From: a virus
Virus record (IMG/VR): IMGVR_UViG_3300032053_000034
Coordinates: 1 to 64,000 of that record
DNA length: 64,000 nucleotides
Direction: 5' to 3' (one strand)
The notes below the pieces were generated by a model. That model was not told the origin of the DNA. It did not search any database and worked only from the letters and a program-made list of their open reading frames with translations. Both the position numbers and the translations under genes were made by a program. Shown piece after piece: positions 1-64,000 of the stretch (the stretch's first letter is position 1; every line of letters begins with the position of its first letter).

Positions 1-255
1 AACAGCTTTACCATTAGTGAGCACCATACCATTAGCGGAAATAATACCATTTTTGATTTCTATTTTAGTAAGCTTTTTTGTCATAAGCTTAAGGGTGTCT
101 CCCTGCGCATACATGACAACATTCTTAGTCATGAATACGGTATCTTTTGTAAATGGTACAGGTTCTTTACCTTTTGCCATAGCAAAACTTGCTCCAATAA
201 TGATTAAAGATAAAATTGCGAATAATGCAAAGAATGATTTGCTGAAATTTTTCAT
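1..255 (-). CDS. Partial hypothetical secreted/membrane protein (runs off window start)
   Basis: Manual translation MKNFSKSFFALFAILSLIIIGASFAMAKGKEPVPF...; signal-peptide-like N-terminus; same strand as neighbours. Confidence 0.6.
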   Translation of the reverse strand, partial: MKNFSKSFFALFAILSLIIIGASFAMAKGKEPVPFTKDTVFMTKNVVMYAQGDTLKLMTKKLTKIEIKNGIISANGMVLTNGKAV

Positions 256-307
256 GATTGTGTTTTTTAAAGATTATCAAATTACTACATCAACCTAGAT
301 GCAGGCA

Positions 308-655
308 CTATACTTCTTCTTCACCGGGAACAAGAGTTTCTTTTTTATCTTCATTAAAGAGCGATTCTTGTAATCTCTTTTTTGATGAAAATGCTTTTGT
401 TTTGTTTATAGTTTCAAAACTTCCAATAGTATAATCAATGATTTTACTATCATGTGGAGCTACTTTCTCACCATAAATACCTCTACAAGAACCTTCATAG
501 GTAATGATTCCTGTAATTTTACCACTTGCAGGTTCATTATTTTTCATAAAATGAACTGTTTCACCTATGCCAAATGATTGCTTATTCTCCGTCATTTTTA
601 AAGTCTTTAAATGATAGTAATTTAATTTCTTTGATAATATTGTTCCAATAGCCAA
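308..655 (-). CDS. Hypothetical protein (true start probably the internal MTENKQ)
   Basis: ORF track; SH3-like 'FGIGETVHFM...GKITGII' pattern common in small phage proteins. Confidence 0.6.
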   Translation of the reverse strand: MAIGTILSKKLNYYHLKTLKMTENKQSFGIGETVHFMKNNEPASGKITGIITYEGSCRGIYGEKVAPHDSKIIDYTIGSFETINKTKAFSSKKRLQESLFNEDKKETLVPGEEEV

Positions 656-848
656 TTGTAGAGGCTAATAGGAATTGATCCCTGACTAAGTTACATGAGA
701 TAATTGCAGCTATTTTAGCGTTTTCAATCATTTCCTCTTTCTCATAGTCAGTATAAATAAAGTCAATAAGCTTAACAGCATTGTAATGTTGCATTACAAG
801 AGTTTTAGCTTCTGAGTTTATTCCGAAAGCCATATAATTATCTTTCAA
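582..848 (-). CDS. Hypothetical protein
   Basis: ORF track; tightly packed operon; 'AKIAAII...YWNNIIKEI' resembles small Bacteroidota phage proteins. Confidence 0.6.
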   Translation of the reverse strand: MKDNYMAFGINSEAKTLVMQHYNAVKLIDFIYTDYEKEEMIENAKIAAIISCNLVRDQFLLASTIGYWNNIIKEIKLLSFKDFKNDGE

Positions 849-1062
849 AATAACCAGTCATTACCCAAGAATGACCCATAAATGATGATGAGCCTTTTGC
901 ACTACAGTGTCCTGGTGTTGGCTTCATCATAAAGCCATTACAATTATATTCACTTGTTTGTGTGAATTTACCACAATCTGTGCATTGCCAATTAAAATAA
1001 CATGTGGCACTTGCTACAATAGATATTGCCAATAAGGCAATCATTACTAATACTTTTTTCAT
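838..1062 (-). CDS. Small secreted Cys/His-rich protein
   Basis: Signal peptide MKKVLVMIALLAISIVASA followed by CxxC, further Cys and a GHSW motif. Confidence 0.65.
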   Translation of the reverse strand: MKKVLVMIALLAISIVASATCYFNWQCTDCGKFTQTSEYNCNGFMMKPTPGHCSAKGSSSFMGHSWVMTGYFER

Positions 1063-1066
1063 TTTA

Positions 1067-2257
1067 TTATTTATTTAAAAGTTCCTCAACTGTAATTGCA
1101 ATAGATATTGGCAAGCGATACCTTCTTTTGTCACCATCAGACTCTTTGTAAACTGAGTTAGAATGAAATTCTCGGATAAGGTTCTTTAAAAGAGTAATGA
1201 GCTGGTCTTTTTCAACAACTACTGCACTTAACTCCTCAATTTTATCAGATAATTCATATTCTTGAGGTGTCAATAGTGTTCCAGGCTCACCTATTGATTG
1301 AAATGTTTGCTCTTGAACTGCATTAAAATATTCCTGCATTTCTCTTTGTTCATCAGGATCATTAATAAAGCGAACACCCATTTGAGTAACAAATTGCGCC
1401 CATCTTTCAGGGTCTAGACGTTGATATTCTGGTCTGTTTTCTATTTGCTCAAATAATCCATTACTCCTATTAAGCGGTCTTTCAATTTCATTTGCTAAAC
1501 TTTCATGAAATTGTCCCCCTGCCTCTTCAGGTGCAAGTGGTGCTTGATGCAATCTAGATAGTCTTGCAATTTCTACTAATCTATTTCTTTCTCTTTCTAT
1601 TTGTCCAGCCATAGACATAGTGCCTCTTACAGAATGTATATTTGTTAGTCTGGCTCTTCTTTGTTCATCAGATTCTGTTATTCTTGAATCATCTTCAGTT
1701 ACTCGTGGATAGCTAGATAATGGAGGAGCAATAAAACCAGTTGATATTACTCTTCTTAATGATTCTTGCATATACCTAGAATTAAGAGTTGTCTCTTGTA
1801 AAGATGATGCAGTGTTTTGATTAATCATTATTTCTGCATTTACAAGATCTGTTATTTCTTGTGGTGATGGTTCGGGTATGTTTTGAGTTCTTAGTTGATT
1901 TTGATAAACTCTAACATGTGCATTTAGGCGTTGTATTTCAGTAGTAAGATGACTGCTTTCGGAAACAATGGCTGCTTGTGTATTTCTTATTTCTTGAATT
2001 TCTATTTCTAACCTATCTCTTGTATTATTAATACTTCTTATTTCTACATCAGCGTTACCAAGTAGTGCAAGCCCAATATTTACACTTTCTTGCTCGTTAA
2101 TATACTGTCTATGATACATATCCCCTCTTCTTTGAGATACTTCTAAAGACAATCTAAGAATATTGATTTCACTTATTAACTTCCTAATCCTAGGTATATA
2201 ATAAAACAATATTAAGCATGTTGCTAATCCATAGGCTATACTCAAAAATGTACTCAT
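1067..2257 (-). CDS. Membrane-anchored coiled-coil protein with a long lysine-free region
   Basis: N-terminal hydrophobic helix, R/E/Q-rich helical body, no Lys between residues 26 and 339. Confidence 0.75.
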   Translation of the reverse strand: MSTFLSIAYGLATCLILFYYIPRIRKLISEINILRLSLEVSQRRGDMYHRQYINEQESVNIGLALLGNADVEIRSINNTRDRLEIEIQEIRNTQAAIVSESSHLTTEIQRLNAHVRVYQNQLRTQNIPEPSPQEITDLVNAEIMINQNTASSLQETTLNSRYMQESLRRVISTGFIAPPLSSYPRVTEDDSRITESDEQRRARLTNIHSVRGTMSMAGQIERERNRLVEIARLSRLHQAPLAPEEAGGQFHESLANEIERPLNRSNGLFEQIENRPEYQRLDPERWAQFVTQMGVRFINDPDEQREMQEYFNAVQEQTFQSIGEPGTLLTPQEYELSDKIEELSAVVVEKDQLITLLKNLIREFHSNSVYKESDGDKRRYRLPISIAITVEELLNK

Positions 2258-2277: not shown

Positions 2278-2302
2278 ATGGGTGAGTAATATACCCACCC
2301 AT
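2278..2302 (-). terminator. Intergenic hairpin (possible weak terminator or processing site)
   Basis: Inverted repeat ATGGGTGAGTA/TACCCACCCAT, fully paired on the minus strand with one G-U; weak U tail. Confidence 0.4.
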
Positions 2303-2308
2303 TAATAA

Positions 2309-2791
2309 CTAAAGCCTACCAGTAACATTAAGCATATCTTTTGTGTACTGATATACTGTTTCTTTCTTTGGCCTTGGCTTCTTATTTATCTTGTTCTTGA
2401 TGAAATTAAATGGATTAACATTGCATTTAAGATTTTCTTTATCATCAAGTACATTGTATGTGTATCCAAATCCTTTTTGCTTTCTATCAAACATATACTT
2501 CTTGCCTGATATTTCCAAGTAAAAGAAATCTTCAATCATGCTTGCCTCAAAATAAACTATCACATCTTGAAGTGTACCAAATGTTTTGTATTGTGTTGTT
2601 TTGAGTCCGTCAATATCAATTGTAATGATATTAACACTAACACGCGAATTGGTATCTTTAAATGTTACTTCAAATACTTGTGTACATTCATTCTCTGTTT
2701 CTTCAATGAGTTTAAATGTATTTGGTGATGCATTAGACATTAAGCAAGCACACATTAATGCTATGAATGATAAAATAACCAGATTTCTCAT
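2309..2791 (-). CDS. Hypothetical secreted protein
   Basis: Signal-peptide-like N-terminus MRNLVILSFIALMCACLMSNA. Confidence 0.65.
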   Translation of the reverse strand: MRNLVILSFIALMCACLMSNASPNTFKLIEETENECTQVFEVTFKDTNSRVSVNIITIDIDGLKTTQYKTFGTLQDVIVYFEASMIEDFFYLEISGKKYMFDRKQKGFGYTYNVLDDKENLKCNVNPFNFIKNKINKKPRPKKETVYQYTKDMLNVTGRL

Positions 2792-3105: not shown

Positions 3106-3291
3106 TTATTTAGTTTTGTTAAATAGATCAGAAATAGCATAAACCCATAAAGCAATAGCTATTAATGGCCATAAGAGCGCGCTTGTTAAATGATATACAA
3201 ATGAGATTTTGTATTTATTTCTGAGTGTCTCATTAGATATAAATACAAATGGCATTGCCAATATGTATAGTATTATGATTAGTAGTATCAT
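3106..3291 (-). CDS. Small membrane protein (2 TM)
   Basis: Two hydrophobic segments, LLWP motif. Confidence 0.6.
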   Translation of the reverse strand: MILLIIILYILAMPFVFISNETLRNKYKISFVYHLTSALLWPLIAIALWVYAISDLFNKTK

Positions 3292-3462
3292 TTAATTTTC
3301 TTTAATGTAGCTTAAAAAACCAAAGAAAATACCAAGAATTACAGTAAATGCAATGCCTGAATATATCTTATTAATTGTCATTAACCATAAGCACAGCCAA
3401 ATTGACAACATGAGTACAGACATAAACAATATGCCTATAAGTATATGTCTAAATAGTTCCAT
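3292..3462 (-). CDS. Small membrane protein (56 aa, 2 TM)
   Basis: Manual translation MELFRHILIGILFMSVLMLSIWLCLWLM...; abuts the flanking ORFs. Confidence 0.55.
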   Translation of the reverse strand: MELFRHILIGILFMSVLMLSIWLCLWLMTINKIYSGIAFTVILGIFFGFLSYIKEN

Positions 3463-4842: not shown

Positions 4843-5310
4843 ATGAATTATAAAAAGAAGAAGTTTTCTGAATTGGGGCCACAATTTATTATTGTTTACT
4901 TGGAGAAGGTATCGGATATATCAAAGAAGTTAAATCCAACTGAGATAGAACTTCTTACCTGGATGTGGAAAGATTGTGTTACCCAAGGAGAAGAGCATCA
5001 CAATGTTGTTTATGCTCTTGCTCACAATAAGAATAAGTGGGCTGCAAGTATAGAGACTAAGGTTGGGGTAATTGAGAATGCAATAACATCACTTGTCTCT
5101 AATGGGTTTATTAAAAGGATTGGCAGAGGGGTTTATATTCTTAATCCGGAGTATTTCTATAAAGGCTCAAAGAATGGTAGATTTTCTTCTTTTGCTGATT
5201 ACAATAAACACATAACTGAAGAAGAGGTTGTTGTAGATGGTAAGACTAATCCACTATTAAGATCACCAGTTGATGAAGAAGCCAGAGAAAACAAAGCAGG
5301 AACTTATTAA
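4843..5310 (+). CDS. RepL-like winged-helix DNA-binding/replication protein
   Basis: C-terminal 'AITSLVSNGFIKRIGRGVYILNPEYFYKGS' typical of RepL-family wHTH proteins, which occur in crAss-like phages. Confidence 0.7.
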   Translation: MNYKKKKFSELGPQFIIVYLEKVSDISKKLNPTEIELLTWMWKDCVTQGEEHHNVVYALAHNKNKWAASIETKVGVIENAITSLVSNGFIKRIGRGVYILNPEYFYKGSKNGRFSSFADYNKHITEEEVVVDGKTNPLLRSPVDEEARENKAGTY

Positions 5311-61892: not shown

Positions 61893-62306
61893 TCAAAGTA
61901 TAAAGCATTTAACTCCGCACTCTTTCTTATTAACCTCATAGCCAAGTGGTATCACAACCACATTATCCATATTGTCTCTTGAAAGGTAGCCATGTTCCTC
62001 CATTTCATCCAAGATAACTTGAGTTATATTATTATAATCAAATTCTCTCTTGGTATCCCTGATAAGATACATCCCAAGAAGAATAGGTTTAGAAGTAGCA
62101 TTGGCTACCTCTAAAAACCTTGACTTTTGTATTGAGAACACCAAAGAAATGTTTCTTTCAAAAGCTGTTACATTCTTACTTGAAATTATATGTGTACCAG
62201 TCCAACGTTTACTATTTTTCTTTGATGGAATATTTATTCCTTGAATGTAAAAATTTGGATTTGCCAAATCTACACTGAACAGATCTATTAATCTTTGGAT
62301 TACCAT
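61893..62306 (-). CDS. RusA-like Holliday junction resolvase
   Basis: G.NIPSKKNS, R...R.FD..N......D.......DN. Confidence 0.75.
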   Translation of the reverse strand: MVIQRLIDLFSVDLANPNFYIQGINIPSKKNSKRWTGTHIISSKNVTAFERNISLVFSIQKSRFLEVANATSKPILLGMYLIRDTKREFDYNNITQVILDEMEEHGYLSRDNMDNVVVIPLGYEVNKKECGVKCFIL

Positions 62307-63130
62307 TATAAATCAAATTCACTTAGTGGTACAAATCCCTCCCCTATACCAGTAACAACTTCTTTCCCTTGTTTATTAAGAGGTAAAGACGGATTAATAG
62401 TTCTTAATACTCCTCTGGAATGAGATCCATAATTAACAAGTATTCCATTAATAAATCTTTGCTTAATCTCTTCAATAATATTTTTTGGTATAGTATCAAT
62501 TCTATGCCCATCTCTTTCCAGGCAAAATGTAGATTTCTGTCTGTATAACTGATCAATATTGTCTTTTGCTATTATTGGAATGTTTTGGTTTTCTGCAATA
62601 CTCCAGTAATATGAAAATTCACGTTGTGAAGGCTTAGTAATCCTAGTATAACTTGTCTTAGCCACATATACAATTCCTTCATTTGTGAAACTGCCAGTAG
62701 TAAGCATTTGATATATTATCCTTTTTGCTTCTGAAGCTCTTACAAACATATCAATATATGGATCACCACCTCTTGAAAAACATGTATATACATTTGCTCC
62801 AATAAAAGTAATTCCATATTGACTTAACCTTCCTGACATAGAATCTTCTCTTGAAGATTTCGCGTTTATCATTGCAAAAGGGATACTAGTCCCGGTGACC
62901 CTCATCCTTCCAATATTAGTAGTTTCAAGATCACTAATAAACATGTCTATATCACTTTCTGTTAAATTAATAAGGAGTTCTTCACTAGAATTAACCTCTT
63001 TTACAAACATGGCAATCATGTATAAATCTATAGCCGTAAGCCATACTTTCTTATAATCAACATGCTTTGATTCATCAGGGTTAAAAACAATATTTTCACT
63101 ACCCTTTAATATGTCTTGGAGGCTATACAT
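62306..63130 (-). CDS. Hypothetical protein overlapping the ThiF gene end
   Basis: ORF track; overlaps the ThiF stop. Confidence 0.65.
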   Translation of the reverse strand: MYSLQDILKGSENIVFNPDESKHVDYKKVWLTAIDLYMIAMFVKEVNSSEELLINLTESDIDMFISDLETTNIGRMRVTGTSIPFAMINAKSSREDSMSGRLSQYGITFIGANVYTCFSRGGDPYIDMFVRASEAKRIIYQMLTTGSFTNEGIVYVAKTSYTRITKPSQREFSYYWSIAENQNIPIIAKDNIDQLYRQKSTFCLERDGHRIDTIPKNIIEEIKQRFINGILVNYGSHSRGVLRTINPSLPLNKQGKEVVTGIGEGFVPLSEFDL

Positions 63131-63833
63131 AAGTTTTGGCTATGTCTAATTGTTGCAAATTAACATAACAATGAAATGGTACATCTAAGATAGTCATGCC
63201 ATTAATCTTGTTGGAGATTAAATTGTTAATTGCTGCCATTCCAAGACTAGTAATCAATGTTGCATTGTGAGTGGTTGCCTTGGCATTACATGGTAATTCC
63301 TCAGCATCATCATCAGAAAACAATGATTTAGCATACTCATTTGCTTGAGCACCATTAGTAATAAGAAAGAATTCAGAATGTTGAGGCGAACTTCTAAAGT
63401 CAATAAAGAACCTATGCTTAGGAGTTGTTCCAGCAGCTTTATGTTCCATTTGCTTTTTAACCCAAAGCTCATAATACATCTTTCTGTACTTCATGCTATC
63501 TACTGCAGAAACAAAGCAATCACCAATATCTGCTGTAGTTGTTGGTACAAAATACCCAGCATGAGCTTGAGTTGAAACATCACTACCAGAGAATAGTTTA
63601 ATATTGCTTGCTAGTGCAGTTGCTTTGTTTGCTGATAAATTATGTACACCACAGAACTGAGCTGATATATTTTGGACCGAGTATAGGTCATTGTCCCATA
63701 ACTCAAGCAGGTGTCCAATCCTGCTTAAATATAGGGACATCCATGATCCTATCATACCACATCCAATTACTTGTATTTTGAGTTTACTTACGGACCACTC
63801 AAAAGCACTAAACCTTTTGTTTGCAGTACTCAT
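63123..63833 (-). CDS. ThiF/E1-like adenylyltransferase
   Basis: VIGCGMIGS Rossmann, DND...QN..Q, KA.AL, AVDSM..R, IDFR, distal Cys in ELPCNAK. Confidence 0.88.
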   Translation of the reverse strand: MSTANKRFSAFEWSVSKLKIQVIGCGMIGSWMSLYLSRIGHLLELWDNDLYSVQNISAQFCGVHNLSANKATALASNIKLFSGSDVSTQAHAGYFVPTTTADIGDCFVSAVDSMKYRKMYYELWVKKQMEHKAAGTTPKHRFFIDFRSSPQHSEFFLITNGAQANEYAKSLFSDDDAEELPCNAKATTHNATLITSLGMAAINNLISNKINGMTILDVPFHCYVNLQQLDIAKTYV

Positions 63834-63838
63834 GATTT

Positions 63839-64000
63839 TTAATGTTTACGTCTATTTTCTCTTCTTTTTTCTCTGGATTCAGTCCACATTTTTACAGCAC
63901 TATTACTACTGATTTTCTCATCTTTCTCATCAAAGATGTCATCAACTGGAGTGCCATTTTGAGTTGTTTCCACAACACCAAAATCCTCGTCAAACTTTTC
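63839..64000 (-). CDS. C-terminus of a gene entering from the right edge
   Basis: Open frame ...EKFDEDFGVVETTQNG...REENRRKH* ending just before ThiF. Confidence 0.45.
   Translation of the reverse strand, partial: EKFDEDFGVVETTQNGTPVDDIFDEKDEKISSNSAVKMWTESREKRRENRRKH

Follow-up and report, generated by a model that had tools for sequence, protein, structure and literature searches.

An arginine-compensated lysine desert in a putative membrane-anchored protein of an AT-rich phage with a candidate ubiquitin-like cassette

Lysine deserts, long stretches of protein from which lysine is absent, protect components of the ubiquitin system from self-modification (PMC10169902, PMC10665810). They are known for example in Slx5, San1, VHL, SOCS1 and RAD23A/UBQLN, and are reported to be enriched in pupylating Actinobacteria and in Mycobacterium phages (PMC10169902, PMC10665810, review PMC13696103); GC bias is a stated weakness of the actinobacterial data (PMC13696103). 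The bacterial E2 protein BubB of Citrobacter has a single lysine, and this lysine is auto-conjugated in vitro (PMC11601596). Here we describe a lysine desert in an uncultured sediment phage that is related to Flavobacterium phage FpV4 and the Steigviridae crAss-like phages. The gene in question, located at positions 1067..2257 on the minus strand (stop codon included), encodes a protein of 396 aa, which we refer to as the target protein. Coordinates refer to the window, the whole stretch of 64,000 nucleotides that was analysed, which corresponds to positions 1-64,000 of the 81,375-bp virus record IMGVR_UViG_3300032053_000034; some features lie beyond the window and are given in genome coordinates.

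Similar to the deserts of the ubiquitin-proteasome system, the lysine-free run of the target protein exceeds both 150 aa and 50% of the protein, is predicted to be poorly ordered and is compensated by arginine. Moreover, the leftover lysines are located in a terminal module, and the genome encodes what is predicted to be ubiquitin-like (Ubl) conjugation machinery. In contrast to the ubiquitin-proteasome and Pup-related deserts, no proteasome or Pup system is involved, and conjugation would be carried out by a system that the phage itself encodes. Unlike in Actinobacteria, GC bias cannot explain the desert, since the phage has a GC content of ~33%. As the best explanation, to which we assign a probability of roughly 0.4, lysine may be kept out of the tether formed by this run to avoid lysine-directed conjugation, most likely by the phage's own Ubl cassette. 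Lysine deserts are already known as a kind, and the mechanism put forward for this one is a proposal.

A lysine-free run in an AT-rich gene

The target protein contains lysine at positions 26, 339, 350, 358, 371, 377 and 396. This agrees exactly with the first-pass annotation of the stretch, which had reported that no lysine is found in residues 27-338 (window 1244..2179, minus strand). The run of 312 aa makes up 79% of the protein and harbours 48 Asp and Glu residues and 32 basic residues, all of which are arginine (P = 5e-17 at the lysine share of the genome). With only one hydrophobic segment, the protein falls within the desert definitions of Szulc et al. 2023, namely a lysine-free stretch that is 150 aa or longer, or that takes up 50% or more of a protein with a minimum length of 150 aa and no more than two transmembrane helices. 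Overall, the target protein contains 1.8% lysine and 9.6% arginine, compared to 7.9% and 3.6%, respectively, in the remaining 75 open reading frames (ORFs) of the genome. At this lysine frequency the chance of a 312-residue run is (1-0.079)^312 = 7e-12, close to the value of about 1e-11 that had been estimated from an assumed 8% lysine, and with the whole proteome of 24,658 residues taken into account it rises to ~1e-8. When lysine-free runs were computed per ORF, as had been suggested as a check, the next longest were 257 aa (ORF at genome 65807-66916), 124 aa and 107 aa. The first-pass annotation had also pointed to the lack of cysteine in the run. The only cysteine of the protein is indeed located at position 14, but with ~3.4 cysteines expected in the run (P(0) ~0.03) we rejected this absence as a signal.

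In its AT content the gene equals the genome (GC 0.336), and at third codon positions the GC content (GC3) is 0.138 in the desert compared to 0.249 in the genome. Among the 32 arginine codons of the run, 28 are AGA or AGG. The low GC3 and the use of AGA/AGG for arginine thus exclude both GC pressure and an import of the gene from a GC-rich donor. Shuffling of bases within codon positions led to an expectation of 23 lysines in the run, and the minimum reached in 5000 shuffles was nine. The words AAA and AAG do not occur in frame, whereas the two remaining frames contain 41 and 34 of them. This indicates that the constraint acts on codons or protein and not on DNA words, and avoidance of AAA/AAG at the DNA level was rejected. 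All 22 AAN codons of the run encode asparagine (P = 4e-8), and 121 of the 312 codons (GAA, AGA, CAA, AAT, ATA and ACA) are a single step away from AAA. Internal repeats were also rejected as a source of bias, as none were found in the target. Neither the base composition nor repeats nor a DNA word bias thus accounts for the depletion. The exclusion of lysine from the tether acts at the codon or protein level and runs counter to the AT pressure of the genome. We consider it very probable that this avoidance of the lysine side chain was selected.

The same data bear on the question of whether the run is an artefact, caused by a stretch that is not a gene, by GC-rich foreign origin, repeats, DNA word avoidance or mutagenesis of the type of diversity-generating retroelements. 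An artefact would be in line with a dN/dS ratio of ~1 without a sign of purifying selection (see below), and with the lack of a recognised family or fold. However, the shuffles within codon positions predicted 18.6 stop codons and no shuffled frame stayed open, whereas the real frame is open and has been retained in a second genome, where it differs by an in-frame indel. Together with the low GC3, the arginine codons, the off-frame frequency of AAA/AAG and the absence of repeats and of a second copy in the genome, this makes an artefact hardly credible. Retroelement-type mutagenesis was rejected as no second copy is available as template repeat and changes are not confined to adenines. A gene overlapping the target in another frame was rejected as well, the target being the sole ORF of at least 50 aa in any frame over this stretch. 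Judged by its coding signature, ORF 1067-2257 is a real gene.

As an alternative, the first-pass annotation had suggested that the protein is built for translation under shortage of tRNA-Lys; nucleases of the PrrC, RloC or PARIS AriB type would cause such a shortage. A frame-specific depletion at the codon level is also predicted by this idea, and having seven lysine codons instead of ~31 would lessen the dependence on tRNA-Lys. However, lysine codon 26 precedes the desert and six lysine codons follow it, so that the full-length product needs tRNA-Lys, and the idea is therefore disfavoured. In addition, other early genes are rich in lysine (~10% in the neighbouring ORFs), the phage has no tRNA-Lys, and a second desert is located in a middle-gene cassette behind a lysine-rich N-terminal domain (see below). 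Translation under tRNA-Lys shortage is thus a very improbable explanation. The phage genome was found to carry one tRNA gene and no tRNA-Lys. The single gene (genome 76203-76273, minus strand, beyond the window; Rfam 53.5 bits) has an 8-nt anticodon loop, ATAAAGAC, for which ARAGORN calls a four-base anticodon, and it is not a tRNA-Lys.

Alleles and anatomy of the target protein

When protein sets of 5.8 billion and 1.84 billion sequences were searched, a single homolog of the target was found, P0002, with a length of 313 aa and an identity of 74-78%. It was recovered intact on a sediment metagenome contig (L005), on which the upstream small ORFs are syntenic. No match to the target was obtained in 50,697 phage records (megablast and tblastn). 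IMG/VR scans using the target, the ThiF protein of the cassette discussed below and P0005 as queries gave no hits; a scan with TerL gave only distant fragments without deserts. Compared to the window copy, P0002 has an in-frame deletion of 83 codons and is lysine-free from residue 27 up to a lysine that aligns with residue 332 of the target. Hence, as far as the conservation of the desert in homologs goes, the one available homolog keeps it apart from one lysine at the edge, and deeper relatives were not found. In contigs from four sediment runs, the target occurred only as the window allele, as the P0002 allele or as a mosaic between these two.

Comparison of the window copy to P0002 over residues 27-206 and 290-338 gave a dN/dS of ~1.0, so that, judged from these two sequences, the tether otherwise drifts almost freely and no purifying selection is seen. 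At the 61 variable sites in the desert, 4.4-4.7 lysines would be expected, and one was observed, at the desert edge (P(<=1) ~0.05). None of the 11 differences between the alleles that involve arginine is an exchange of arginine and lysine, compared to 6 out of 25 in an E2-like protein of the same lineage (see below). This allele comparison gives a modest indication of ongoing selection against lysine. The last 58 residues are near-identical in the three alleles, also at synonymous sites (dS 0.014), and the C-terminal module occupies the same stretch as the conserved flank of a cassette of small genes that is prone to swapping. The tail of the record (genome 80106-81375) repeats its head (window 1-1332) only at two edges, with 95-97% identity, and the 0.8-0.9 kb between these edges harbour different small ORFs at head and tail. 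Contig L005 carries the tail-type set of small ORFs (71, 80 and 87 aa). The record looks like a circularly permuted genome that was assembled across two strains, with the swap-prone accessory cassette located directly downstream of the target.

The target protein probably consists of a single N-terminal anchor, a tether of ~310 residues that is probably cytoplasmic, and a small C-terminal module. The putative membrane anchor is a hydrophobic segment at residues about 3-22 (residues about 4-22 for window 2192..2248, minus strand), followed by RIRK. It has the highest Kyte-Doolittle 19-aa windows of the protein, and no others are found elsewhere. Because no basic residue precedes the anchor and three directly follow it, the positive-inside rule predicts an N-out/C-in topology, with most of the protein on the cytoplasmic side. 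In an AlphaFold2 (AF2) model made from three sequences, with a predicted local distance difference test (pLDDT) score of 48, a continuous helix spans residues 2-124 and includes the anchor segment, residues 139-337 form low-confidence helices or are disordered, and the C-terminus shows a helix at 331-367, a hairpin and a helix. The single hydrophobic segment and this modelled helix are the two observations consistent with the membrane anchoring that had been claimed previously. The quality of this model did not suffice for a fold search. The C-terminal module (residues 339-396; window 1070..1243, minus strand) is predicted to form a helix, a beta-hairpin and a helix and has a normal lysine content (6 of 58 residues). 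Searches of the target against Pfam, PHROGs and NCBIfam gave coiled-coil noise only, and against the ESM Atlas nothing above chance.

A comparable architecture is found in p16.7 of phi29, a membrane-anchored early phage organiser with an N-terminal anchor, a coiled coil and a C-terminal binding domain. The target resembles p16.7 in its presumed early position, single N-terminal anchor, coiled coil and small C-terminal module. In contrast, the two proteins have no sequence or fold similarity and the target is three times longer. To our knowledge, a lysine-free tether has not been described in membrane-anchored early phage organisers or exclusion proteins.

Given a net acidic tether (48 Asp and Glu to 32 Arg) with evenly spaced arginines and a predicted helical or poorly ordered structure, a biophysical preference for arginine has to be considered, in which no covalent chemistry is involved and the guanidinium group serves contacts to phosphate, lipid or nucleic acids or multivalent self-association. 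The count of no lysine among 32 basic residues still allows a strong quantitative preference of this kind, with a lysine share of up to ~8%. However, such a preference is not seen in other charged low-complexity segments of the proteome. In charged 100-aa windows of low hydrophobicity, lysine makes up 4% of the basic residues in the target, 33% in the protein with the second desert and 43% in the tail of the JAB protein, compared to 62-100% in all other phage proteins, including lysine-rich low-complexity virion proteins. Furthermore, AGA to AAA, the commonest conservative swap, is never seen at a dN/dS of ~1, and total absence over 312 residues fits better with a situation in which even one lysine is harmful. 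On balance we regard a purely biophysical cause as unlikely.

A candidate ubiquitin-like cassette and its link to the desert

Downstream of the primase, the phage carries a cassette that comprises genes for a Ubl, a 150-aa protein, a 369-aa protein, a 353-aa E2-like protein, a JAB protein, a ThiF protein and a 274-aa protein, all on the minus strand. The ThiF/E1-like adenylating enzyme (window 63123..63833) matches PF00899 above the curated cut-off (E = 1e-9) and shows weaker NCBIfam matches to PRTRC_ThiF and 6A-MBL cap2_3; its homologs are found in FpV4-like and crAss-like phages. Only the 3′ part of the JAB/JAMM-like gene lies in the window (63839..64000), and the gene extends to genome position 64765. 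Its match to Prok-JAB (E = 0.007) is below the curated cut-off, and its motifs EWSG and HSHx7SxxD are kept in FpV4 gp51 and cr111_1 gp058. The cassette-associated 274-aa ORF (window 62306..63130), in which arginine equals lysine, overlaps the ThiF stop codon and has positional counterparts after ThiF in FpV4 (gp49), cr111_1 and a bajarodcaudo virus.

The remaining cassette genes lie beyond the window. The Ubl of 105 aa (genome 67428-67745) is encoded by a separate ORF and ends in SGA|ILL. It aligns with FpV4 gp53 and with the homologs of cr111_1 and the bajarodcaudo virus, and the Ubl part ends in SGG or SGA in all of them. In these three phages the Ubl is fused to a lysine-rich extension of 125-205 aa. 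On visual inspection, this extension begins in a similar way to the 150-aa ORF of the present phage (genome 66900-67352), with a motif like helix-extension-helix. The E2-like protein of 353 aa (genome 64765-65826) contains an invariant HSH...Cys118 motif. Its N-terminal 150 residues were modelled as a helix, four strands and then helices (pLDDT 50-79), and the best structural matches were mostly UEV, E2 and RWD folds, including Citrobacter BubB, CdnG-E2 and Cap2, with Z scores of 5-7. These matches support, but do not prove, a UBC fold. A Foldseek search of the E2-like model against the PDB gave no match, and neither did tblastn of the protein against phage records.

With a Ubl that would need C-terminal trimming, a ThiF-type E1, a JAB peptidase and an E2-like protein with predicted UBC fold and HxH...Cys motif, the phage set resembles the Bil, Bub/6E, type II CBASS (cyclic oligonucleotide-based antiphage signalling system) Cap2-Cap3 and PRTRC operons of bacteria. 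In contrast to these operons, it is located in the replication module of a lytic-type phage and recurs as a conserved set in FpV4-like and Steigviridae phages, its sequence matches to the bacterial families are all below the curated cut-offs, and the target protein has no counterpart there. From its motifs and models, the cassette looks like true conjugation machinery. No published description of this phage cassette was found in the literature.

A second desert is located within this cassette, between the Ubl and E2-like genes. The 369-aa protein (genome 65807-66916) has an acidic C-terminal tail of 257 lysine-free residues with 19 Arg and 48 Asp and Glu, whereas its N-terminal 112 residues contain 12.5% lysine. 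A likeness between the two deserts was rejected. When all proteins of the genome were ranked by R/(K+R), the target came first and cassette ORFs took four of the eight top places (hypergeometric P = 0.0017). As a group, the cassette proteins are shifted from lysine to arginine (Mann-Whitney p = 0.0012), and the lysine and arginine counts of the E2-like protein (18-19 Lys, 23 Arg) are kept in a relative of 52% identity. The link between the target and the cassette is circumstantial.

Avoidance of adventitious lysine conjugation is proposed as the mechanism because of the literature on deserts and the auto-conjugated single lysine of a bacterial E2. Any exposed lysine on a long flexible tether would be a liability as an acceptor of covalent lysine-directed modification. 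The cassette of Ubl, E2-like, JAB and E1 proteins that the phage itself encodes would be the likeliest modifier, and the target may serve phage Ubl conjugation at the membrane as an adaptor or tether, or be an unavoidable bystander of it. The remaining lysines would then be confined to the membrane interface (K26) and the folded C-terminal module, with the positive charge in the tether being supplied by arginine encoded by AGA/AGG instead. That the selected avoidance is due to the phage's own Ubl chemistry is a tentative assignment, with the odds somewhat against it.

Several observations weigh against this explanation. Conjugation to lysine, or to proteins at all, by the cassette is predicted only, the structure models have low confidence (pLDDT 48 and 42), the Z scores of the fold search stay below 8, and the evidence for ongoing selection is of borderline significance (P ~0.05). 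Only two genomes carry the target protein, both desert proteins are confined to one narrow lineage, and the 369-aa protein has no counterpart in the cassettes of FpV4 and cr111_1. Co-occurrence of the target with ThiF, Ubl and JAB genes, which had been suggested as a check, was not found across genomes, and neither was synteny: FpV4, cr111_1 and the bajarodcaudo virus carry the cassette without a target homolog. These cassette-bearing relatives also have no comparable arginine-compensated deserts, and their Ubl extensions are lysine-rich. In FpV4 (27% GC) the longest lysine-free runs are 198 aa, in a structural protein low in both lysine and arginine, and 106 aa, in the tail of gp49; in the cassettes of cr111_1 and the bajarodcaudo virus no run exceeds 112 aa. 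Finally, the target is located ~13 kb from the cassette, and the shared lysine-to-arginine bias is the sole link. The suggestion of the first-pass annotation that the protein is a partner of the phage's own E1/ThiF chemistry is thus in line with the cassette, the second desert and the group bias, but at odds with the relatives that have the cassette and lack both target and deserts.

The lineage-specific occurrence of the desert would instead be predicted if the pressure came from the host, that is, if a lysine-free early accessory protein evaded a lysine-directed attack by a Bil-, Bub- or CBASS-Cap2-like system or another modifier. According to work cited in PMC11601596, Bil joins a Ubl to phage proteins via lysine isopeptide bonds. 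The location of the target in an early block of ORFans, next to a swap-prone cassette, and its dN/dS of ~1 are typical of arms-race genes as well. However, neighbouring early ORFs are high in lysine, reaching for instance 10.6% in ORF 2309-2791, and evasion of a host attack leaves the lysine-to-arginine bias of the phage's own cassette proteins unexplained. We see host attack, an option that the first-pass annotation had also raised, as an unlikely cause and prefer shielding from the phage's own cassette.

Early neighbourhood and meaning for the phage family

The phage shares its architecture with FpV4 and Steigviridae, including giant ORFs of 4,241 and 1,626 aa, compared to 4,287 and 1,596 aa in FpV4. 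The target starts the minus-strand block and adjoins the divergent junction; from this position it is plausible that it is an early gene. The first gene of the plus-strand block (window 4843-5310, plus strand) matches the RepL family (PF05732, E = 4e-6, above cut-off). A 9-bp hairpin, GGGTGGGTA / TACTCACCC with the loop TAT, is located 23 nt upstream of the start codon of the target (window 2280-2300, minus strand) and is not followed by a T-run. The neighbours of the target are ORFans, several of which encode small membrane or lipoprotein-like proteins. Directly upstream lies a lipoprotein-like ORF of 160 aa (window 2309-2791, minus strand), and downstream a Cys-rich ORF with a signal peptide (window 838-1062, minus strand) that has a weak match to a PHROG annotated as 'lipoprotein'. 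Two ORFs of 56-61 aa with double membrane spans are also found upstream (window 3106-3462). These ORFs form a cluster of presumably early envelope proteins.

Given this cluster of small membrane proteins, with a lipoprotein-like ORF on one side and a signal-peptide ORF on the other, the target could be an envelope-exposed protein, spanin-like or acting in superinfection exclusion, in whose periplasmic domain lysine is a liability via lysine-specific proteases or peptidoglycan cross-linking. An i-spanin (Rz-like) combines an N-in/C-out anchor, a periplasmic coiled coil and a paired o-spanin lipoprotein and is encoded in a lysis cassette; for the target, a membrane anchor followed by a predicted coiled coil and an adjacent lipoprotein-like ORF were observed. 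However, the charge distribution predicts a cytoplasmic domain, opposite to the topology of i-spanins, and no endolysin, lysis enzyme or recognisable holin family was found near the target. The i-spanins known to us are far shorter than 396 aa and are not lysine-free. An envelope-exposed domain is accordingly a rather improbable explanation compared to the avoidance of Ubl conjugation.

What is new here is an arginine-compensated desert beyond the reach of a GC explanation, in an AT-rich phage with its own Ubl, E2-like, JAB and E1 set and with a second desert inside this set. The signal opposes a strong AT pressure and is frame-specific, whereas the bacterial and phage cases put forward so far come from GC-rich Actinobacteria, where the signal is confounded by composition (PMC13696103). 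Because the same genome encodes the Ubl, E2-like, JAB and E1 proteins, the hypothesis is directly testable. The outcome would also offer a first clue to what the Ubl cassette does; this cassette is conserved beside the primase in FpV4-like and Steigviridae crAss-like phages and still carries the annotation 'thiamine biosynthesis protein'. In its widest form, which we regard as doubtful, a lytic phage would run a promiscuous Ubl conjugation and shield the flexible parts of its accessory proteins, one of them membrane-tethered, by arginine-compensated deserts. If true, no earlier bacterial virus would have shown a lysine-desert logic beyond what GC content can account for, and it would follow that lysine isopeptide bonds are formed by the Ubl cassette conserved in FpV4-like and crAss-like phages.

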